A DNA stretch of 64,000 bases from positions 1 through 64,000 of the forward strand of contig CAVYSY010000058.1 of assembly GCA_963771175.1 (NCBI GenBank). Reading direction: 5' to 3'. Of this stretch, positions 16,233 to 26,740 are shown in pieces; positions within the stretch are counted from its first letter, which is position 1, and every line of letters starts with the position of its first letter. The notes under the pieces are model-generated. The model was given only the letters and a program-made list of their open reading frames with translations. It was not told the DNA's origin and did no database searches. This DNA is from an uncultured delta proteobacterium (GTDB taxonomy: Bacteria; Myxococcota; Myxococcia; Myxococcales; Myxococcaceae). The translations under genes were made by a program, and so were the position numbers.

Positions 16233-17213
16233 TCAAGGAAGCTCGAGCACCCGCACCTTGAGGGCAGCCGGGTGCTCGGGCGTGGCCGGGAAGTCCACCG
16301 GCGAGGGGCCCAGGCTCAGCGAGCCCCTCCCCTTCCGACCCGCTCGGGACACGCCCTCCGTCACCATCGCCTCGAAGCGCCGGGACGCCAGCGTGGCGAG
16401 GTTGCAGCACGCGACCAGTCGTCCCCCAGGCACCACCACCCGGGCGGCGGCCTCGGCCAGGTTGGCGTAGTCCCTCGCGGCGGAGAAGCGGCTGGTGCGC
16501 GTGGTCGCGAAGGACGGAGGGTCCGCCACCACGACGTCGAAGGTCTCTCCCTTCTTCGCCAGACGGCCGAGCCACTCGAAGACATCCCCCGCCACGTAGT
16601 CGTACCGGTCCACCGGCTGGCCATTGAGGCGGGCGTTCTCCTCGCCCCAGTCCAGCACGCGGCGGCTCGCGTCGATGTTGAGGACGCGCCTGGCCCCGCC
16701 CGCCGTGGCCGCCACGCCGAAGCCACAGGTGTACGAGAAGAGGTTGAGCACCGTGAGGCCTCGCACCTCCCCGGCCAGCCACGCCCGCGTGTCGCGCATG
16801 TCCAGGTAGAGGCCCACCGAGAGGCCCTGCCCGGGGCGGATCAGGAAGCGCAGCCCATTCTCCAGCGCCACCAGCGACTCCACCGACTCGCCGCGCGCGG
16901 CCACCTCGGGAGCGAGCTGCTCCTTCGCCACGTTGGCCAGGTGGCGCGCCTCCTTCGGCCTCCGCTTGAGGTACAGGCTCCGAGGCGCCCAGGCGGCCTC
17001 CGCCGCATCGAGCAGCGCCTGCTCCTGCACCGGGGAGAAGTCACTGTAGAGGCTCACCACGTGGACGTACTCGAACACGTCCACCGTCACGTCGGGGACA
17101 CCATCGGCCTCCCCGTTGACGAGCCGGTACGCGGTGCTGCGCGGGTCCTCCCGCAGGGGCACGCGCCGCTCCCAGGCCCGACGAAGGAGCTCCTCGAGCG
17201 AGTGAGCGCTCAT
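16233..17213 (-). CDS. Class I SAM-dependent rRNA methyltransferase (RlmI-like)
   Basis: Motifs YRLVNGEADG, GLYLDMR, VLNLFSYTCGF, DPPSF. Confidence 0.9.
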   Translation of the reverse strand: MSAHSLEELLRRAWERRVPLREDPRSTAYRLVNGEADGVPDVTVDVFEYVHVVSLYSDFSPVQEQALLDAAEAAWAPRSLYLKRRPKEARHLANVAKEQLAPEVAARGESVESLVALENGLRFLIRPGQGLSVGLYLDMRDTRAWLAGEVRGLTVLNLFSYTCGFGVAATAGGARRVLNIDASRRVLDWGEENARLNGQPVDRYDYVAGDVFEWLGRLAKKGETFDVVVADPPSFATTRTSRFSAARDYANLAEAAARVVVPGGRLVACCNLATLASRRFEAMVTEGVSRAGRKGRGSLSLGPSPVDFPATPEHPAALKVRVLELP

Positions 17214-18571
17214 CCGCCGCGCACCGGGTCTTCGAGCTCCTCCGCCTCCGGGACACGGGCGCGCGCCCACACGTCGGAGAGGACCTGGGCGGCCTCGCGT
17301 GCCAGCACCACCTCGTCCACGCCAAGGAGCTGCCCCTCGCGCACGGTGACGCGACCGTCCACGATGTTCCACGCCACCTGCGAGCGCCCCATATACGACA
17401 GGAGATGCGGGGCCTGCCCGCTGCCCGCCTCCAGCGCCGGCACATAGTCGAACACCACCAGGTCCGCGAGGCGCCCCTCCTCCACCGCGCCCGAGGGCAC
17501 GCCGAAGAGGCGCGAGCACAGCTCGGCCGGGCCATCCGCGAAGAGCTGCACCAGCACCCCGTCCGGGTCCACCAGGCGAGAGCCCCGCGCGGCCCCCACC
17601 ACCGTGACGAGGGCGGCGGACAGCGCGCTCCAGAGGTTGCCGTGCCCGCCACTGCCGAGCCCCATCAGGTTCTGCCGCCCGAGCAGCGTCTCCAGGGCCC
17701 GGCCGCTGGGCTCGACGAGGAGCGCCGACCCGGGGCCGAGCGCCACGCAGGTGCCAGACTGAGCCAGGAGCTGGGACTCGAGGTCATCCACGGAGCGCGC
17801 GTACGCGGCCACCGAGAGCGGCCCGAGCAACCCGAAGCCCTCCAGCCGCGTCACCACCCGCTGGCCGTTCTGCTGCCAGGTGCTGGCCAGGTCATGGTCC
17901 CCCTCGTAGAGGTGGAAGACGATGGGCGCACCGGAGGACTCGCGCAGCCGGCCGAGCTTCCCCAGCAGGGCGTCTCCGCTCGTCCACGAGGCATGGAAGC
18001 CAAGCGCGCCACGCACGAGCCGGTGCGAGCCCCGGCGCCGCACGAAGTCGGCATTGGCCTCGGCCTGGGCTTCGGCCCGCGGGGCCCCGTCGAGGCTGTC
18101 GGTGGCATGGCTCGCCACCAGCCGCAGGCCGAGCAGCTCCGCCGCACGCGCCTGGGCATCCAGGCCACCGGCCACGTCTCCCGGGCACGACAGGTGCTCC
18201 ACCACGAGCGAGACGCCCGCGCGCAGCGCTCGGGCCATCGCATAGCGGGAGAGCACCTCCACATCCGTGGCGGTGAGGTGCGACGCCAGACGCCGCTCGT
18301 GCTCCAACCGGACCTGGGGCGCGTGCAGCAGGAGCTCGCCGGAGGGAGGCACCAGCAGATCGCCCACCAGGTGGGCATGGCAGTCCACCAGCCCCGGAGT
18401 CACCAGCCGCCCGCGGCAGGAGACCTCCCAGTCCCCGGGGAGCACGGGCACCTCGGCATCGGGAGCGACCCGGCGGATGAGACCATCCTCGACGACGATG
18501 GCCATGCCGGGACGCCCTCGGCCGTCCGCGCGGAAGATGGAGCAGTTCTTGAGGACCAGGCGGCCTTCCAT
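17210..18571 (-). CDS. Amidohydrolase superfamily protein (SsnA-like)
   Basis: Motifs VTPGLVDCHAHL, GFHASWT, FHLYE, GRLADLVVFDY. Confidence 0.85.
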   Translation of the reverse strand: MEGRLVLKNCSIFRADGRGRPGMAIVVEDGLIRRVAPDAEVPVLPGDWEVSCRGRLVTPGLVDCHAHLVGDLLVPPSGELLLHAPQVRLEHERRLASHLTATDVEVLSRYAMARALRAGVSLVVEHLSCPGDVAGGLDAQARAAELLGLRLVASHATDSLDGAPRAEAQAEANADFVRRRGSHRLVRGALGFHASWTSGDALLGKLGRLRESSGAPIVFHLYEGDHDLASTWQQNGQRVVTRLEGFGLLGPLSVAAYARSVDDLESQLLAQSGTCVALGPGSALLVEPSGRALETLLGRQNLMGLGSGGHGNLWSALSAALVTVVGAARGSRLVDPDGVLVQLFADGPAELCSRLFGVPSGAVEEGRLADLVVFDYVPALEAGSGQAPHLLSYMGRSQVAWNIVDGRVTVREGQLLGVDEVVLAREAAQVLSDVWARARVPEAEELEDPVRGG

Positions 18572-18630
18572 GGGGCCGCGAGTATACGCATGGAGCCACC
18601 GCCTGGATCGCGGGAGTGTCTCCCGGATGC

Positions 18631-19053
18631 TCAGAACAGGCTCATCTGGGACTTGTCTTCCTCTTCCTTGCTCGTGCCGCGAGCGGGCAGCGGGGTGAAG
18701 CCGTGCTTCGCCGCCCATTCCGGAGCCGGTCCGGCCCAGCGGAAGCGGTCCATGAGCACCTTGCCCTTCGGGTCGAACTCGACGCCCTCGGCCACCAGCA
18801 ACTCCCGCTGGTTGTACCCCTGCGTGCTGATGCCTCCCGAGCGGTTGATGATGCGCTGCCAGGGCACCTGGGCGGCTCGCGGCCCCAGGTCCCCCATCGC
18901 GAGGCCCACGATCCGGGCATCGCACCCTCCTCCCACGATGAGCGCGATGTCGCCGTAGGTCGACACCTGACCTCGCGGCACCTGCTCGACGACCTGGTAG
19001 ATGCGCTCGAAGAACCTTCGCTCGTGCATGGTGATGGTGATCGTTGTGGACAT
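18631..19053 (-). CDS. Alkyltransferase-like protein (MGMT family, Atl/YbaZ-type)
   Basis: VPRGQVSTYGDIA..ARIVG..VPWQRIINRSG..LLVAEGV, with Trp in place of the catalytic Cys. Confidence 0.9.
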   Translation of the reverse strand: MSTTITITMHERRFFERIYQVVEQVPRGQVSTYGDIALIVGGGCDARIVGLAMGDLGPRAAQVPWQRIINRSGGISTQGYNQRELLVAEGVEFDPKGKVLMDRFRWAGPAPEWAAKHGFTPLPARGTSKEEEDKSQMSLF

Positions 19054-19229
19054 GTCCTCTCCAGTCAGATTCCGCCTACTACCTCGGAGGACAGGTGAGA
19101 GGGAAGTTTGTACTACGTCCTACGTCACGCACCCAACCCGACAGGCGCGGAAGTGGAGGTGCTGGCCAGGAGAGGGAGGCGCTAGGGAGCTCCGCCTCGG
19201 CGAGCAACCCGCCAGCACCGGCGTGACGT

Positions 19230-19699
19230 TCAGACTTCCTCGTCGGGCAGGAGCGTGAGTAGCAGCTCGTCGTCGGGACCGCGCGGGAGCCAACCGGGCG
19301 GCGGGGGCGTAGCGAGGAGTGCATCGCCGGCCTTGTCGGCGCGCTCCTTATGGGTTTCTGGGGTGAAGGCTACCCACGTGCCGAGCGCAACGGCAACCTT
19401 GAGGCGGTTTGCGTCGTCCAGCACGGCCGGCCAGCCGTTGGGGAGTACGCCCACAGTTCGCGCACGAGCTGGCCGCGCACTAGCCGCGTGACCTGATTGC
19501 TCCGCTCCGCTTCGGCCAGCAGTCCACTGAACACCTGCACTCCGGCGATGTCGTCCGGACCAAGCTCCTCGGCCAGCGCCACCAGCGACGCGGTCGGGCG
19601 CGCCTCGGCGAAGGCGGTGAGCGAGTCGTAACCTCGCTCGCGGACCCGCTCATACAGGCGCGCTTTGATGTTGCCCTCCCAAGCACGTCCGTCGCTCAT
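19230..19699 (-). CDS. Myxobacterial immunity-type protein (often auto-annotated as NUDIX hydrolase); frameshift near 19455
   Basis: MSDGRAWEGNIKARLYERVRERGYDSLTAFAEARPTASL continues in a second frame as LPNGWP..PPPGWLPRGPDDELL. The family is recalled as the neighbour of DUF2380 lipoproteins. Confidence 0.65.
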
Positions 19700-19885
19700 C
19701 TCCCACCACAGCGGATGAAGTTCATCGGGATCTCTGTACAACTTCATGCGCTCCGCGACGATCTGGGTGTAGCGCAGGCTCCGCCCCGGGCCAGGCGGTG
19801 GCTTCAGCGACACACAGGCGTTGGACAGGAGGGCCAGGGCAAGCAGCAGCCCCGTCCCCCTCGCCCCTGGCGAGTCAGCGCGCAT
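19700..19885 (-). pseudogene. Internally deleted lipoprotein toxin remnant (DUF2380-like)
   Basis: The lipoprotein leader MRADSPGARGTGLLLALALLSNACVSL..LRYT joins directly to a C-terminal-like IVAERMKLY. Only about 60 codons remain. Confidence 0.55.
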
Positions 19886-19933
19886 TGTCCACCCCAAAGG
19901 ATTCCAGGCGCGTGAGGTAGCGCCATGGCCGGC

Positions 19934-20920
19934 TCAGAGCTTCAGCCCGTTGCCGAGCCGTTTGCGCAATGGCTCCAACGCCCGCGTGGAGAGTCCCATC
20001 TCCCGGAGGGAGAGCTGGCGCAGCGCGGGTAGCGCCTTTGGCGAGCGGAAGGCCAGCGCGCCGTCCTCGCTCAGCTCGTTCCGATCCAGCTCCAGGCGCC
20101 GCAGGTTCGTCAGCACCTTGCTGGCCGCGAGCGCCTCGGCGCCTTCGTCGGAGAGGGAATCGCGGTTGAGGGCGAGCAGCTCCAACGACTGGAGAGGCTT
20201 CGCGCGGGCCAGCACGGCGGCGCCCTCGTCGGAGAGCCCCGTCGCCGTCAGGTAGAGCCGCACCAGGGAGGGCCGGAGCCCCGCGAGCGCCTCGGCGCCC
20301 TCGTCCCCGAGCTCCTCGTTGCCCGTCAGGCTGAGCGAGCGCAGGCCCGACAGGGCCTCGCTCCGGGCCAGTGAGGACACCCCCTCCAGGTCCGCCGAGG
20401 AAAGCACCAACCCCTCCAGCCGGCCGACGTGCGCGCCCGAGGCCAGCGCCTCGACAGCCGCGTTCACCCCACCGCCCGACAGCTTCAACCAGCGGACCTG
20501 CTCGAACCACGGCTGCGCCACGGCCCGGGCCAGCTCCTTCCCCTTCCCCTTCCGGACCTCCAGGTTCAGCCGGTGGATGGGCTCGAGCGCGAAGAGCGAA
20601 GCCCCATGCTCGGCGAGGTTCTCCTCGGAGAGGGACACCTCCTCGACGAAGCCGCGGCTGAAGTGGAAGTCGGACGCGCCCAGCTCCTTCAGTCCGGCCA
20701 TCCACGCCTTGCCGTGCTCCCGCAGCAGCGTATCCACCCGCTTGCGCAGGTAGAGCCGCCGCGCCGGATCCATCCCCCGACCAGCGAGCGCCACCTGCGC
20801 CCGGATGAGCTCGGCGCGTGGAGCATCGTCCTCGCGGAAGGCCTCCGCGCAGGCCAGACGGGCCTCCAGTTCCTCCGGGTGGGCGGCCACTCGAGCCACC
20901 AGCGCGCTATCAGGCTTCAT
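19934..20920 (-). CDS. TIGR02996-like N-terminal domain plus leucine-rich repeats (328 aa); retron-associated gene
   Basis: N-terminal LVARVAAHPEELEARLACAEAFRE.D.PRAELIRAQ, then FSRGFVE, then repeats LRSLSLTGNEELGDEGAEALA, LVRLYLTATGLSDEGAAVLA and LRRLELDRNELSEDGALA. ATG 20918-20920 overlaps the RT stop 20917-20919. Confidence 0.85.
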   Translation of the reverse strand: MKPDSALVARVAAHPEELEARLACAEAFREDDAPRAELIRAQVALAGRGMDPARRLYLRKRVDTLLREHGKAWMAGLKELGASDFHFSRGFVEEVSLSEENLAEHGASLFALEPIHRLNLEVRKGKGKELARAVAQPWFEQVRWLKLSGGGVNAAVEALASGAHVGRLEGLVLSSADLEGVSSLARSEALSGLRSLSLTGNEELGDEGAEALAGLRPSLVRLYLTATGLSDEGAAVLARAKPLQSLELLALNRDSLSDEGAEALAASKVLTNLRRLELDRNELSEDGALAFRSPKALPALRQLSLREMGLSTRALEPLRKRLGNGLKL

Positions 20921-22345
20921 CGTCCGAGCAGCTCCTTCACCTCGCGCTGCCAGCGCGCGCCCAGCTCCGGGTGCACCATCCGCACATAGGCCGCGTAGCC
21001 CTCCAGCCAGCGCTCGAAGTCCGGCCGGCCCCTCGCCTGCGAGGCCACCCCGTGCCTGCGGCAGTTGGCGAGGATGGCCTTGAAGCGGCGCCGCTCCTCG
21101 CGCGGGATGGAGACCTTCTGGTTCACCGTGAGGCCCGTCACCCGCTGGCGCGAGCCCTGGCGCATCACCCTCCGCTTCTTGCCGTTCTCGGCGAAGCCCT
21201 CCTGCTGGAGGATGGCGTTGACCCACCACAGGAAGCGGCCCAGGCGCTCGGGGGGCTCGCGGAAGGAGAAGGACAGGTCATCCGCGTAGCGCGTGTAGGT
21301 GGCGCCGAACCTCCCGGCCAGCGCGGTGAGGCGCGCGTCCATGCGCCGGCAGACGAGGTTGGCGATCGCCGGGGACGTGGGCGCTCCCTGCGGCAGCATG
21401 CCCGGCCACACCACCGTCCCGTCCGGCAGCTTCGGACGGTGCGTGGCGAGCCCGGCGAGCACTCCGGCCACCTCCTCGCCATAGCCGTGCGCCAGGAACA
21501 GGCCCTTCACCCGGCGGTAGTGCACCGTGGGGAAGAAGTCCTCGAGGTCCACCCGCACCACCGCCGTGGCCCCCACGTGCGGCTCGGCGTTGCTCACCGT
21601 GGAGCGCCCCTCGATGAAGCCGTGCGCGGCCGGGTGCGGCGGCATGTGCGAGAGCACCTTGTCGAGGAGTGCCCGCTGCACCTCCTTGAGCCTCTGGCGC
21701 GGCGCCGAGATGCGGCGCACCCCGCCCGAGCGCTTGGGCACCTCGAACTCCACGTAGCCCGAACCGGCCGCCGTGCCCGGACGCATCAGCGCGTCCAGCT
21801 CGGAGTCGTCCACGCCCACCAACTCCGCCACATCGGCCCGGGTGTGCAGCGCGGGCAGCTTGCCCGAGACGGGCGGCGGGCGCCTCGCGGCTCCTGGAGA
21901 AGCCGTGAATCTCGTTCCGGAAGAGGCCGAAGTGCCAGCCGGTCGGGTTCCACCCGCCCACGGACCTGCTGTGGGGATGGCGAGGCGGCCGGGCCCGGCG
22001 ATCCGGTGGCGCCACGTCCGCGAGCCCCAACCGGCGCACCGAGGCCCGAGCGGCATGGGCGACGCGCGAGTCCGGGTCCTTCACGCGCTGGCGGAGCCAC
22101 CGGGCCGCCATCACGCCGGAGAACAGGAGCGGGAGGTGCCGCACGCCCTGGAGCCGCTCGCGAGGGTCCACGCTGCGCAACCTGCGCTCGACGGGTGCCA
22201 GCCACGAGCGGCTCACGTAGAAGCGCGCCACCTCGTACTCGGCGAGTCCCTGGTGACGCTCCAGCAGTTCGGTGATGCGCTCGTAGTTCGCATCCGGGTC
22301 CGCCAGCAGGGGCTTGAGTTCGAGGAGGAGGCTGGCGAGGTTCAT
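20917..22345 (-). CDS. Retron-type reverse transcriptase with N-terminal HEAT-like helical domain (about 475 aa; one frameshift near 21865-21915)
   Basis: Motifs PKRSGGVRRISAP, region X SNAEPH (NAxxH), DLEDFFPTV, LPQGAPTSP, YTRYADD, and region Y QRVTGLTVN (VTG). The N-terminal part is in ORF 21278-22345 (MNLASLL..VKDPDSRVAHAAR..GWNPTGWHFGLF). Confidence 0.93.
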
Positions 22346-22376
22346 GCCGTGTACCCAGAGTGGCCGAGGATGAAAC

Positions 22377-22539
22377 CGGTGCTCCTGGAGCCGCCGCCAC
22401 CTGCACGGCAGAGGCAGACGAGGTCAGGGTAGCCCGCCAGGCGGACCTCGTACTGCATCGTTCTTCAATGGGTAACGTCAGCAGCCGCGACGTGACATCG
22501 CGGACGGAAGGCTGGCTGCACGCGACCCCAGGAGCACCG
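22377..22539 (-). ncRNA. Retron msr-msd non-coding RNA
   Basis: Perfect 12-bp inverted repeat cggtgctcctgg (22377-22388) / ccaggagcaccg (22528-22539). G residues lie just inside the 5' arm on the transcribed strand. msr-like stems gcagcc/ggctgc and ccgcga/tcgcgg (22481-22519). msd-like stem gcagacgaggtc/gacctcgtactgc (22414-22456). The region ends about 30 bp upstream of the RT start. Confidence 0.8.
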
Positions 22540-22621
22540 TCGACAAGCTCACCACAACCCGGGGCCGAGTGGGAAGGCCATCCGCGGCCCTTGCCCTGCA
22601 TCGGTGTGGTAGGAGAAACGC

Positions 22622-23857
22622 ATGGCGGACTTTGGTATCGACGTCGACCCATGTGAGGTCGGCCTGGACGCGCGGCGGCTGCGGCGCATCGACACGCATT
22701 TCAGCCGGTATGTTGATGACGGGCGGCTCGCGGGCTGGCAGGTGATGGTCTCGCGCCATGGCAAGGTCGCGCACCTGACGTCGTACGGGCTCGCCGACAA
22801 GGAGGCCGGCCGCAAGGTCGAGACGGACACCCTCTGGCGCATCTACTCGATGACGAAGCCGATCACCTCGGTGGCGGCGATGATGCTGTGGGAAGAGGGA
22901 GCATTCGAGCTCTCCGATCCCGTCAGCCGGTGGCTGCCCGAGTTCGCGGAGCCGCGCGTCTACGTCGGAGGGTCGGCGAGCAAACCCGTCACCGTGCCCG
23001 CGATCGAACCCATCCGCGTGTGGCACCTGCTCACGCACACCGCGGGGTTGACGTACGGCTTCCTCCGGGTGCACGTCACCGATGAGCTCCACCGGCTCCG
23101 AGGCTTCGAGCTCGGCGCGCCGGACGGCTTCGACCTCGCCGCGTGCGTCCGCGCGTGGGCGGAGCTCCCGCTCTCCTTCCAGCCCGGTGCGGAGTGGAAC
23201 TACTCGGTGGCGACGGATGTGCTCGGTCGGCTCGTCGAGGTCGTGTCCGGACAGTCACTCGACACCTTCTTCGCGGAGCGCATCTTCGGCCCGCTCGGGA
23301 TGAAGGACACCGCGTTCTGGTGCCCCGAGGACCGCCAGCATCGCCTCGCCGCGCTGTATGCGATGGCTCCCGGGCGCACCGGGCCGGTCCGCGCCGAATC
23401 GGCCGGAAAGCGCATCACGCAGCCTCCGTCCTGGCTGTCGGGCGGCGGCGGGCTGGTGTCGACGACGCGCGACTACACGCGCTTCACCTGGATGCTCCTG
23501 AACGGCGGCGAGCTCGAAGGCACGCGGCTGCTCTCCCCGCGAACGGTCGAGTACATGACCCGGAACCACCTGCCCGGAGGGGCGGACCTCACCTCCTTCG
23601 GTCGGCCGCTGTTCGCCGAGACGCGGTTCGACGGAGTCGGATTCGGGCTCGGCTTCGGCGTGGTCATCGACCCGGTCGCCTACCGCACGCTGTCGAGCGA
23701 GGGCGAGTACCACTGGGGCGGCATGGCGAGCACCGCGTTCTGGGTCGATCCGGCCGAGGACCTGACCGTCGTATTCATGACCCAGCTCCTCCCGTCGAGC
23801 ACCTACCCCATCCGCACACAGCTCCGCCAGCTCGTCTACCAGGCGATCGTCGACTGA
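22622..23857 (+). CDS. Serine hydrolase, beta-lactamase/esterase family
   Basis: SMTK (SxxK), LLTHTAG, WNYS and WGG motifs, with an AGGAG RBS. Confidence 0.93.
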   Translation: MADFGIDVDPCEVGLDARRLRRIDTHFSRYVDDGRLAGWQVMVSRHGKVAHLTSYGLADKEAGRKVETDTLWRIYSMTKPITSVAAMMLWEEGAFELSDPVSRWLPEFAEPRVYVGGSASKPVTVPAIEPIRVWHLLTHTAGLTYGFLRVHVTDELHRLRGFELGAPDGFDLAACVRAWAELPLSFQPGAEWNYSVATDVLGRLVEVVSGQSLDTFFAERIFGPLGMKDTAFWCPEDRQHRLAALYAMAPGRTGPVRAESAGKRITQPPSWLSGGGGLVSTTRDYTRFTWMLLNGGELEGTRLLSPRTVEYMTRNHLPGGADLTSFGRPLFAETRFDGVGFGLGFGVVIDPVAYRTLSSEGEYHWGGMASTAFWVDPAEDLTVVFMTQLLPSSTYPIRTQLRQLVYQAIVD

Positions 23858-23863
23858 GACCTG

Positions 23864-26740
23864 TCAGCCCCCCGCCTCCGGCCCGGGCTCGTCCTCGTCG
23901 AGGAGCGCCAGGAGGGTGTCGCGCGTGCCTCCCGGGGCCTGCCGCACGAGGGTGTTGAAGCGCTGGTTGCTCGCCCGCACCCGCTCGCCGTGCGCCCGCA
24001 TCGTCGCCAGCACGTCCGGCACCATCCACGGCCGGGAGAGCACCTCCAGGTTCTGCGCCAGCTCGCGGTGGTTGCGCGGCGCGGTGAGGCAGGCGGACAC
24101 CCCGGGCTGCGACAGCGAGTAGCGGTAGCAGTCCACCGCGCTCGGGAGCAGCGTGTCCTGGGGCGCTCCCGGCGCGGGCCGCAGGAGGCGCCCATAGCAG
24201 GTGGAGGTGAAGGTCAGCATCCCCGTCCCGCGCGAGAGGGCCTCGGGGAAGAGGGCCGCCTCCGCGCCTGGATGCGCGGCGCTGTGGCGTGTCATCACCA
24301 CCGGCCACGGGTGCTGGCGCAGGGCCTCCAGTGCGATGTCCCGGTGGTGGGTGGAGAAGCCAAAGGCGCGGACCTTGCCCTCGGCGCGCAGGGCCTCGAG
24401 TGCCTCGAAGTTCTCCGCGTCCAGCCGCTCGCGCGAGCGCACCCAGAACAGCAGGAAGACGTCCAGCCGGTCCGTGCGCAGCAGACGCAGCGCGGACTGC
24501 ACGTCCCGCCGAAGCGCCGCGGCTCCCGAATGGTACGTGCCGGCCACCACCACGAGCCCGTCTCGTGCGGTGCGGCCGGAGCGCAGGAAGCGCGTGAGCT
24601 GCGTGTAGCGCGGCTCCCAGAAGAAGGCGTTCACACCGGCCTCACGGGCCTCGGCCAGCGAGCCGACCGACAAGCCGTGGGCCCCCGAGAGCACGAGCGG
24701 CGAGAGGCTCAACCCCGTGCGGCCCAGGGGGCGCCAGGAGCCGTGCAGCGGAGACTCGGGCGGTGGGCGCGCGGGGCTCGCCTTCGCCCGCTGGGAGCGT
24801 GTGGGCCGCCTCTGCTCGATATCGGGGGCGGCCGCGAAGACCTCGTCGGGGAAGACGAGCGTCATGGCCTCCAGATGCGAGACCACCCGCGCCGGCTCGG
24901 AGGGATCGCGCAGCGCGGCGCACAGGCGCTCGAAGGCGGGGCCATCCGCATGGCGCAACAGCCACGTATAGGCGGAGGCACGGACCTCCGCGTCCGGCTC
25001 GGGGACGGGCCCGTACAGCAGTCCGGCCAGGCGCTCGTCGAGGGTTTCACATCCCTCCAGCACCGAGGCCGCCGCGACCCGGGACATGGGCGAGGTATCG
25101 AGCGACAAGCGCAACAGCGCGCTCAGCTCCTCCCGCTCGCCCTCCGCCTGGAGCAACTCGGCCGCGCGTGCGCGAATCCACGGGTCCGGAGACCGCGCAC
25201 CCGCGAGCCCGGCGGAGCGCAACTCCGTGGATGGCACTTCATGTCGGCACGAGACGAGGCGTGCCATCGCCGCACGGCGCACCGATAGGTCCGGGTCGCT
25301 CGTGCAGGCCACCCGCGCGGAATCCGTATCCAGCACGGCGGCGCGGATCCACGGGTCCTCGCTCTCGGCCGCCGCGCGAATCTCCTCGGGGGAGAGTCCC
25401 TCCCGAGCCACGAGCCCGGCCAGCACCACCGCTCGGACCGAAGGGTCCACGTCCTTCGCGGTCCGAGCAAGAAGGGTCTCGTCCTCCGAGAAGACCGCCG
25501 CCTCCGCCACCGCGCGACGCTCGCGAGGAGAACGGGCCCTGGGCGCGAAGGCCACCAGCGCACGCGCATACGCCGCGATGGCCTCCGGAGCCACTGGCCG
25601 CTGCTCCCATGCGGCGATGACGACCTCGCGCACCAACTCATCCGGGTCATCGAACGCGGCCAGCACCTCCGCGCGGCTCTCCGGGTCATGAACGAGTCCC
25701 GAGAGCGCCGCGCGCCGCACGGCCGGCTCGGGGTGTCGGGCCAGGAGGCGGACGCGCTCCAACAGTCCAGCATGGGCCCTGCGCGCGGCCACCCACGCCG
25801 CCCAGCCCACCGCCCCCGGCCGGGGTGGTTCGTCGAGAATCCGCGAGGCGAGGGCCACGTCGTCCACATCGAGGCGTTCGAGCAGCGCACGGACCTCGTC
25901 CGCGGCATGGGGGACGCGCGGCTCATCCAGCCAGCGCATCGCGAGCCGGAGCGCCTCCGGGTCACGCCGCTCGCGCAGGCGGCGCCGTGCGAGGAACCGT
26001 AGCGGCTCGTGGGGGTCGCCGAGCCACTTCACCAGCTCGGACACGGGGATCTCCGAGGCGGGCATCCGTTCGAGCCGCGCCGTCACCACCGCTGGGTCCT
26101 CGTTGTCGAGGGCCCCTGGAGCCACCGGGAGCGGCGCGGGCACGGGAGGAGTCATGGAAGACGAGGTCGCCCCACCCCACACGCCTTCGAGGTACAGGGA
26201 GGCAGCTCTCACCGCTCGGTGTCGGAACGTCTCCGCCACGGCGTGCACCCGCCGCCGGACGAGAGGGTCCACCTCTCCGAACCAGGCCAGCGCCTGCACC
26301 GCCGCGTTGCGCACGCGCCAGAAGGGGTCCTCCAGCGCTTCCATCAGAAGGTCCAGTGCACCCGTCCCCGCCACCGAGGCCGCGGCCCGGATGGCGGCGC
26401 GGCGCACCCACCAGACCGGCTCCTCGTGGAGGGCTCGCGACGCCTGCGGCAACGACTCTTCCACCCCCAGCCGCGCCAGTGCACGCCAGGCCCGGTCTCG
26501 GACGCTGGGCATCGGATCGCGCAGGGCCTCCAACAGGGCCGGAGCGAAGCCACCATCCCGAGCCTCACCGAGCCGGCGCGCGGCGGAGGCTCGGACCTCG
26601 GCGTCCTCGTCCGTCAGCAGCGCCTGCCGCAGGGAATACCGGCCCGGGGGCACCGAGAGCTCCACGGCATCCACCGCCTCGCGCCGCACCTCGGCGTTCT
26701 CGTCGAGCAGCCGCACGGCGGCGGGGTCCAGGAGGGTCAT
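23864..26740 (-). CDS. HEAT-repeat protein fused to a C-terminal aldo/keto reductase-like domain (958 aa)
   Basis: Many DxxxxVRxxA repeats over about 640 aa, then WRPLGRTGLSLSPL..SALRLLRTDRLDVFLL..EGKVRAFGFSTH..YRYSLSQPGV. Confidence 0.8.
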   Translation of the reverse strand: MTLLDPAAVRLLDENAEVRREAVDAVELSVPPGRYSLRQALLTDEDAEVRASAARRLGEARDGGFAPALLEALRDPMPSVRDRAWRALARLGVEESLPQASRALHEEPVWWVRRAAIRAAASVAGTGALDLLMEALEDPFWRVRNAAVQALAWFGEVDPLVRRRVHAVAETFRHRAVRAASLYLEGVWGGATSSSMTPPVPAPLPVAPGALDNEDPAVVTARLERMPASEIPVSELVKWLGDPHEPLRFLARRRLRERRDPEALRLAMRWLDEPRVPHAADEVRALLERLDVDDVALASRILDEPPRPGAVGWAAWVAARRAHAGLLERVRLLARHPEPAVRRAALSGLVHDPESRAEVLAAFDDPDELVREVVIAAWEQRPVAPEAIAAYARALVAFAPRARSPRERRAVAEAAVFSEDETLLARTAKDVDPSVRAVVLAGLVAREGLSPEEIRAAAESEDPWIRAAVLDTDSARVACTSDPDLSVRRAAMARLVSCRHEVPSTELRSAGLAGARSPDPWIRARAAELLQAEGEREELSALLRLSLDTSPMSRVAAASVLEGCETLDERLAGLLYGPVPEPDAEVRASAYTWLLRHADGPAFERLCAALRDPSEPARVVSHLEAMTLVFPDEVFAAAPDIEQRRPTRSQRAKASPARPPPESPLHGSWRPLGRTGLSLSPLVLSGAHGLSVGSLAEAREAGVNAFFWEPRYTQLTRFLRSGRTARDGLVVVAGTYHSGAAALRRDVQSALRLLRTDRLDVFLLFWVRSRERLDAENFEALEALRAEGKVRAFGFSTHHRDIALEALRQHPWPVVMTRHSAAHPGAEAALFPEALSRGTGMLTFTSTCYGRLLRPAPGAPQDTLLPSAVDCYRYSLSQPGVSACLTAPRNHRELAQNLEVLSRPWMVPDVLATMRAHGERVRASNQRFNTLVRQAPGGTRDTLLALLDEDEPGPEAGG

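Follow-up and report, generated by a model that had tools for sequence, protein, structure and literature searches.

Does the 163-nt segment at positions 22377-22539 of a 64,000-nt stretch of a myxobacterial genome (contig CAVYSY010000058.1, positions 1 to 64,000; the whole stretch is referred to as the window) encode the template RNA of a retron on its minus strand, and if so, of which kind and primed at which guanosine? The segment lies directly upstream of a gene for a reverse transcriptase (RT), and an earlier note, made from the letters alone, had read it as an msr-msd RNA with 12-bp terminal arms, a branching guanosine in a G run next to the 5' arm and a short multicopy single-stranded DNA (msDNA) of 65-80 nt starting at about 22390. 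The segment is a real, conserved retron template RNA and belongs to an already known kind of system. We consider it likely that the minus strand of 22377-22539 is the msr-msd RNA of a type XIII retron (the clade of Mx162 and Mx65), placed in a module of HEAT gene, noncoding RNA (ncRNA), RT gene and leucine-rich repeat (LRR) gene, and primed at G22512. The architecture proposed in the earlier note was largely right, and its branch G and msDNA start were probably off by 11-15 nt.

Structure and conservation of the template RNA

All the elements listed in the earlier note were found at the positions given there on the minus strand, and the identification of a retron msr-msd RNA directly upstream of a retron RT was confirmed. 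The 3' edge of the RNA (22377) is 31 nt before the ATG of the RT gene (22345), on the same strand, and the span from the 5' arm (a1) to the 3' arm (a2) is 163 nt. The arms 22539-22528 / 22388-22377, a perfect 12-bp inverted repeat, are real and conserved, and the stem is even longer than had been described, as 22539-22522 pairs with 22394-22377 over 18 nt (89% complementary, including two G-U pairs). The msd stem 22456-22444 / 22425-22414 is present and conserved and carries one bulged U; the linker 22476-22457 and the small ctgc/gcag hairpin at 22411-22401 are present too. The inner ccgcc/ggcgg hairpin within the msd stem exists, but not with its full 5 bp, since only 3-4 bp are sterically possible. 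From the two nested stems that had been assigned to the msr, ccgcga 22503-22498 / tcgcgg 22490-22485 is conserved, but the outer one, gcagcc 22519-22514 / ggctgc 22486-22481, shows compensatory changes in one of its six pairs and competes with a better supported 4-bp helix (Table 1); moreover, both stems cannot be full length at once because they share G22485 and G22486.

Homologous RNAs were compared in two alignments, one of 61 RNAs made with MAFFT (A1) and one of 69 sequences fitted to a covariance model and biased towards the structure (A2). Of the 47 pairs in the structure model, 18 belong to the a1/a2 stem, 4 to the 4-bp helix, 6 to the msr hairpin, 12 to the msd stem, 3 to the apical hairpin and 4 to the small hairpin. 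In A1, 89.2% of the cells were paired, against 35.6-49.0% when the partners were slid, and 33 of the 47 pairs were compensatory; the covariation score was 0.271, compared with at most 0.097 for slid partners, and none of 500 shuffles reached the observed value. The corresponding results for A2 were 91.8% of the cells paired (31.2-52.6% slid), 38 of 47 pairs compensatory and a score of 0.361 (at most 0.087 slid). In the RNAs upstream of homologous RTs the arms were conserved and covaried; helix 2 of A1, the continuation of a1/a2 past the G run, had 92.2% of its cells paired and double changes in three of its four pairs. Paired a1 and a2 arms, whose sequence varies from copy to copy, were found in 53 of the 54 homologous copies scanned (in L054 they were misassigned by the arm search). 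The 17-nt core of the msr hairpin was exact in 48 of 51 orthologue loci, two others having 1-2 changes and one locus being cut off. In homologues with a longer msd, the extra bases are inserted at the apex of the stem.

The covariance model of this family, R1, gave a single match in the window (188.2 bits, E 1.2e-42). It also found members outside its seed, namely L078 (two copies), L079, L081 (two copies), L082 and L092, with further compensations in the 4-bp helix (ACUA/UAGU, GGUA/UACC and GCGA/UCGC) and in the msr hairpin (CCGUGG/UCACGG). Among 61 related genomes, R1 matched exactly the 11 that have the orthologous RT, once each and adjoining the RT gene; these 11 sequences are seed members, and the informative part is the silence in the other genomes. 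Both R1 and the conserved 17-nt hairpin were absent from 19 paralogous RT loci (L012-L030), whose ncRNAs are different families, and the RNA is tied exclusively to one RT lineage. Of 208 genomes examined in the family, which represent 51 genera, 52 have the orthologous RT (E at most 1e-85), and these come from 11 genera; the relatives carrying it include Vitiosangium, Archangium, Hyalangium and two Myxococcus species, and more distant carriers are metagenome-assembled genomes (MAGs) of Kofleriaceae and other myxobacteria and a Fimbriiglobus MAG. The distribution in myxobacteria looks vertical.

In several of these relatives full-length copies of the template stand in tandem before one RT: two copies each in L064-L067, two in L078, L081 and L090, and three in L085. 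The copies are 170-390 nt apart, each with its own arms and a different msd stem. The two copies of L078 are located about 3.4 kb upstream of the RT gene.

The RNA fold of 22370-22545 had an energy of -87.8 kcal/mol (z = -3.46), and one of 200 shuffles was equally stable. In a G+C-rich genome the folding energy is by itself modest evidence, and the covariation in homologues is much stronger evidence that the structure is not due to chance. 

The four public sequencing runs compared (X1, X2, X3 and X18) were all in the form of assembled contigs. One of them, X18, is size-fractionated RNA-Seq of organism C, a related organism; it contains one contig of 154 nt, with a depth of 14.5, that corresponds exactly to 22377-22530 with three differences, and the rest of 21700-22700 is uncovered. 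One end of the contig coincides with the last base of a2 and the other lies 9 nt inside a1, which fits a discrete small RNA with its end at the final base of a2. The retron template RNA is probably expressed.

Priming site and predicted msDNA

According to Simon et al. (2019), the priming G of retrons lies in a conserved AGC, with the context CAGC in Mx162 and Sa163 and GAGC in Mx65, and the stem either contains the priming G or ends just 5' of it, the G following directly after the stem in most retrons. Two opposing Gs are indicated in the legend of Figure 2 of Mestre et al. (2020). In the RNA studied here the branch was placed at G22512, with G22401 as the first templated base, because the sole invariant AGC (22513-22511) is preceded by a covarying helix and faces the invariant G22400. 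An AGC facing a G at the inner end of the stem is provided by these bases, and priming from them is read from the sequence; G22512 is probably the branch G. The three columns of the AGC (A35, G36 and C37) are invariant in A1, none of the 31 distinct patterns among the 69 sequences lacks the AGC or the opposing G, and GCA-G-U at 22404-22399 is invariant but for one position in the alignment of 61 sequences. In Ec86 (Retron-Eco1), as proposed here, priming is from a G that lies at the end of the a1/a2 stem opposite another G, and templating begins with the base 5' of the opposing G; Ec86 differs in that its priming G follows the stem without an internal loop, and in its RT clade and effector.

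In the proposed mechanism the ends of the RNA would pair, a1 (22539-22522) with a2 (22394-22377), and past a small internal loop the 4-bp helix 22516-22513 / 22399-22396 would set G22512 opposite G22400. The RT, probably docked on the invariant msr hairpin 22503-22485 as its recognition element, would prime from the 2'-OH of G22512 and copy the RNA from G22401 towards the 5' end, via the small hairpin and the msd stem-loop. Reverse transcription would halt in or near the conserved motif CAUUGAAGAACGA (22470-22458), for which no pairing partner was found and which is likely the zone where reverse transcription ends or where the 3' ends of DNA and RNA overlap. The product would be a branched msDNA of about 56-72 nt with the plus-strand sequence from 22401 upward.

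The short, plus-strand msDNA of the earlier note agrees with this prediction, but not its start, since with the primer G22512 opposing G22400 the first templated base would be 22401. The msDNA would have at least 56 nt, because both strands of the covarying msd stem need reverse transcription to reach 22456, and a length of about 56-72 nt is likely if CAUUGAAGAACGA is taken as the end zone. The range of 65-80 nt given before overlaps this estimate; the 3' end is not predictable from the structure and its position is a guess, because termination is governed by RNase H1 and tertiary structure rather than by secondary structure (Palka et al., 2022). The DNA fold of 22401-22456 (-15.2 kcal/mol, z = -2.94) consists of a 4-bp hairpin at the 5' end and a 12-bp stem with a small apical hairpin, and that of 22401-22472 had -15.3 kcal/mol (z = -2.4); the description of the msDNA as multi-hairpin was therefore overstated, as one 12-bp stem-loop with a tiny apical hairpin would dominate next to the 4-bp 5' hairpin.

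The bases just 5' of the priming helix (22521-22516) repeat the first templated bases (22406-22401), so that GUGCAG occurs twice in the window RNA, and the same kind of repeat is found in other lineages with other letters (CCGAGC, CACGCA, GAAGCAG). Among 11 hand-picked lineage representatives the longest shared word had a mean of 5.64 in matched pairs versus 3.57 in unmatched pairs, a difference reached in none of 100,000 permutations. The 5' end of the msDNA could therefore pair with the msr RNA beside the branch.

Two other pairings were tried and rejected. A helix of GUUACC (22476-22471) with GGUGGC (22400-22395), taken from the minimum-energy fold, has a 5' strand that varies (GATACC, GACTCC, GACACC) while its partner is unchanged, and it is incompatible with the covarying 4-bp helix. 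When the outer stem was shifted in register so as to pair the G of the AGC (columns 44-48 / 72-76), 90.7% of the cells were paired, with no compensatory change.

Several observations weigh against the reading of 22377-22539 as a type XIII msr-msd RNA primed at G22512. No msDNA was observed, its production, the branch point and both DNA ends being deduced; no match was obtained in an Rfam scan of 21000-24000 on both strands with E up to 10, and neither a sigma-70 consensus promoter nor an intrinsic terminator was found in a scan of 22300-22700. The X18 evidence is an assembled contig, from which neither the strand nor the true ends can be read, and RNA libraries may contain contaminating DNA. 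Within the structure, the second pair of the 4-bp helix is C-A or C-C in 10 of 67 distinct sequences, the small hairpin 22411-22401 is nearly without covariation, and the outer stem gcagcc/ggctgc, which excludes the 4-bp helix, pairs in 89.5% of the cells with one covarying pair (GC in 40, UA in 7) and may be an alternative conformation. G22512 itself lies 9 nt past the contiguous 18-bp stem, at whose inner end G22521 faces G22395. This G would be the classical choice, following the stem directly as in most described retrons (Simon et al., 2019); it would move the msDNA start to 22396 and lengthen the msDNA by about 5 nt, and a G-G opposition directly at the end of the a1/a2 stem is also seen in L151, a paralogue of Mx162 size. 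However, G22521 is not conserved in the family, being C in L011, L086 and L087, and has no AGC context, whereas the AGC 9 nt downstream and G22400 are invariant and the helix between covaries, so that priming at G22521 appears unlikely. Less probable still is the version of the earlier note, with 12-bp arms, a branch at 22527-22526, an msDNA from about 22389-22390 and an msr of two nested stems. It has on its side the perfect 12-bp repeat followed by Gs, and the frequent pairing of the outer stem just mentioned. The G run (22529-22526) is, however, base-paired within the a1/a2 stem, and in homologues the pairing with the 3' arm includes the run and goes on for another 4-6 bases, with compensatory changes, which speaks against branch candidates there; a base inside a continuous helix and outside any AGC also misfits the priming geometry described by Simon et al. 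(2019), and the nested stems would have to share two Gs.

A further observation against the main reading is that the RT gene of the window is frameshifted by one extra C in the CC at 21889/21890, in a variable linker between the N-terminal extension and the RT domain, so that an intact RT reading frame is lacking in this assembly, while the frame is intact in all 11 orthologues aligned. The retron could accordingly be dead in this genome, its RNA conserved and perhaps transcribed and its split RT making no msDNA, and this copy may be inactive unless the extra base is an assembly error. On the other hand, the extra C is absent from three near-identical public contigs, with depths of 35.1 of 35.1 in X1, 26.8 of 26.8 in X2 and 6.25 of 17.4 in X3 (the X1 contig covers the whole kilobase with eight other differences), and because of these assemblies the frameshift is regarded as an assembly error or a strain-private mutation. 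The RNA and both reading frames are otherwise without decay, and an ATG at 22056 in the frame of the RT domain could still yield a protein with the whole domain. A dead retron is held to be a serious possibility, though not the expected one. By contrast, it is extremely improbable that the RNA is no retron template and instead controls the RT operon, whether as a structured leader at its 5' end, as an attenuator or as a small regulatory RNA. The distance of 31 nt from the start codon, the discrete small-RNA contig and the lack of an Rfam match would suit such a role, but the RNA has all the sequence hallmarks of an msr-msd (terminal repeats, AGC plus opposing G, a hairpin in the msr, and in the msd a stem whose apex varies), it is found with no RTs other than retron RTs of a single lineage, and a leader leaves unexplained why two or three tandem copies precede one RT in several relatives.

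Table 1. Coordinates, strand and main attributes of the features of the locus (positions in the window).
Feature	Position	Strand	Attributes
a1, 5' arm of the terminal inverted repeat	22522..22539	-	All 18 pairs compensatory, 87.6% of cells paired (69 sequences)
a2, 3' arm of the terminal inverted repeat	22377..22394	-	Pairs with a1
Internal loop GUGCA between a1 and the 4-bp helix	22517..22521	-	Together with G22516 duplicates the predicted first templated bases GUGCAG, 22406-22401
4-bp helix, 5' strand GCCA, ending at the proposed priming G	22513..22516	-	Partner 22399-22396; 96.3% of cells paired, 3/4 pairs compensatory
Invariant AGC; G22512 is the proposed branching (priming) guanosine	22511..22513	-	61/61 sequences
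G22400 opposing the proposed priming G, then UGGC (22399-22396), 3' strand of the 4-bp helix	22396..22400	-	Alignment columns G148 and T149 invariant
msr hairpin CCGCGA-UGUCACG-UCGCGG	22485..22503	-	100% of cells paired, 3/6 pairs compensatory
Single-stranded conserved motif CAUUGAAGAACGA between msr and msd	22458..22470	-	Conserved in alignments A1 and A2
msd stem-loop, 12 bp and one bulged U, inner 3-4 bp hairpin at 22443-22435	22414..22456	-	12/12 stem pairs compensatory, 92.9% of cells paired
Small hairpin CUGC-CGU-GCAG, predicted first templated segment	22401..22411	-	92.3% of cells paired, 1/4 pairs compensatory
Conserved block directly upstream of a1, ccttcccac ... ccgggttgtggtgagctt	22545..22580	-	10 same-genus sequences (window and 9 orthologues); farther upstream unrelated
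Predicted msDNA, plus-strand sequence	22401..22472	+	Predicted 5' end 22401; 3' end between 22456 and about 22472; from the priming geometry
Retron RT gene	20917..22345	-	N-terminal extension from ATG 22345; RT domain in frame 20917-22080; extra C at 21889/21890 breaks the frame
Downstream gene, 328 aa, TIGR02996 domain and leucine-rich repeats	19934..20920	-	ATG overlaps the RT stop (ATGA at 20920-20917)
HEAT-repeat protein, 958 aa	23864..26740	-	Pfam HEAT_2 3.3e-34; PADLOC HEAT-ARM_XIII weak, 4.8e-12
Beta-lactamase-fold gene between HEAT gene and RNA	22622..23857	+	Pfam Beta-lactamase 9.8e-74

The RT gene and its module

The RT domain was recognized by Pfam RVT_1 (E 1e-20), and the best PADLOC match of the RT was RT_XIII (E 1.1e-114), so that its type is assigned by profile match; the best 25 of its 56 PADLOC matches are all retron RT models. 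The NCBIfam retron models match it at 1e-62 to 1e-66, under their curated cut-offs. The frame of the RT domain contains NAEPH, YADD and VTG, the motifs of retron RTs. In nine orthologues from the same genus (89-92% identity), a single open frame of 498-515 aa begins with the same N-terminus, MNLASLL, compared with only 387 aa open in the window. The N-terminal segment of 141 aa is conserved in 39 of the 41 loci examined, and an N-terminal extension has been described for myxococcal retron RTs (Simon et al., 2019). The frame of 355 aa from ATG 22345 was rejected as the RT: it has no Pfam or PADLOC match, its first ~140 residues being real and the remainder out of frame.

The gene downstream of the RT encodes a protein with a TIGR02996 domain (29.8 bits, cut-off 29.05) and leucine-rich repeats, for which no PADLOC model was matched. 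Of 41 related loci, 29 have, downstream of the RT, a match that extends into the LRR part; the query included 103 residues that overlap the RT out of frame, and short matches to the query start were left uncounted. The HEAT gene is upstream and on the same strand in 32 of the 41 related loci, where it mostly ends about 50 nt before the RNA, and in relatives from other genera it is the gene immediately preceding the ncRNA. Apart from HEAT, neither SWIM nor other type XIII accessory matches were found among the nine reading frames scanned (17210-26740).

The content of the gap between the HEAT gene and the RNA differs among same-genus genomes. In the window it is occupied by the beta-lactamase-fold gene, which accounts for the lack of relationship of the sequences upstream of about 22580 among these genomes. 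The 35-nt block at 22545-22580 is a possible promoter or processing site, to judge from its conservation.

Relationship to known type XIII retrons

Type XIII corresponds to RT clade 10 of Mestre et al. (2020), which contains Mx162, Mx65, Ne144 and Sa163, has a distinct ncRNA structure and shows signs of vertical inheritance. The partners listed for it in the available text of that study are the cluster 114 SWIM/DEDE protein, with a DEDE motif, a winged helix and a C-terminal SWIM zinc finger, and HEAT/ARM proteins, none of them LRR. The locus of the window has the general constitution of a retron (RT motifs, an upstream ncRNA closed by a1/a2, an AGC facing a G, an msr hairpin and an msd stem). 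With respect to type XIII, the RT_XIII profile match, the N-terminal extension and the HEAT/ARM protein were found, the last by a weak match and with one gene between HEAT and ncRNA; the cluster 114 SWIM/DEDE protein was not found among the nine frames mentioned, and an LRR gene is coupled to the RT.

The locus resembles Retron-Mxa1 (Mx162) and Retron-Sau1 (Sa163) in RT clade, N-terminal extension of the RT, CAGC context and HEAT/ARM association. It differs from both in having no SWIM/DEDE gene alongside and the LRR gene instead, and from Mx162 in its a1-a2 span of 163 nt, compared with the 241-nt transcript and 162-nt msd of Mx162 (Simon et al., 2019); by this measure it is not an Mx162 orthologue. 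With Retron-Mxa2 (Mx65) it shares a short msDNA (predicted here), the N-terminal extension of the RT and a myxobacterial host. The RT of Mx65, however, has a substituted NAXXH asparagine and its context is GAGC (Simon et al., 2019); because NAEPH is present and the context is CAGC, the locus is not an Mx65 orthologue either. The RNA family is probably a subset of the type XIII ncRNA consensus of Mestre et al. (2020), as compared by description, and the internal loop, the 4-bp helix before the AGC and the tandem copies may already be drawn in Supplementary Figure S1 of that study. The words 'LRR', 'leucine-rich' and 'tandem' do not occur in the main text of a 2026 retron survey, which hence reports for type XIII no LRR partner and no tandem templates.

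It is conceivable, but doubtful, that the lineage represents a distinct sub-type of type XIII, with three traits not described before: the LRR/TIGR02996 protein, translationally coupled to the RT, replaces the SWIM protein, one RT serves two or three tandem templates and the 5' end of the msDNA folds back across the branch. If so, tandem templates that differ in their msd stems would give one RT several msDNA products. Because the 5-9 bases templated first duplicate the RNA just 5' of the priming helix, the 5' end of the msDNA could, after removal of the template by RNase H, bend back over the 2'-5' branch to the msr, as a structural lock able to set priming or termination. Type XIII includes the first retrons ever found (Mx162 and Mx65), and neither a function nor a solved structure is given for it in the available text of Mestre et al. 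(2020), Simon et al. (2019) or the 2026 survey. A short and conserved template RNA with a predicted branch at G22512, a predicted first templated base at 22401 and defined helices offers a compact type XIII system for biochemistry, the conserved module of HEAT gene, ncRNA, RT gene and LRR gene suggests which proteins to express together, and the tandem template arrays point to retrons making more than one msDNA.

For the annotation of this genome the locus is ordinary, being one of three retron-type RT loci, with an RT that is possibly broken. The RTs of the other two, L151 and L152, are 47% and 43% identical to this RT. In L152 (C54:159768-160727) candidate repeats were found with no clear AGC geometry, the arms of 15 nt spanning 283 nt around a perfect 25-bp hairpin. 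L151 (G000 C30:114752-115711) has arms of 20 nt and a span of 230 nt, the size of Mx162.

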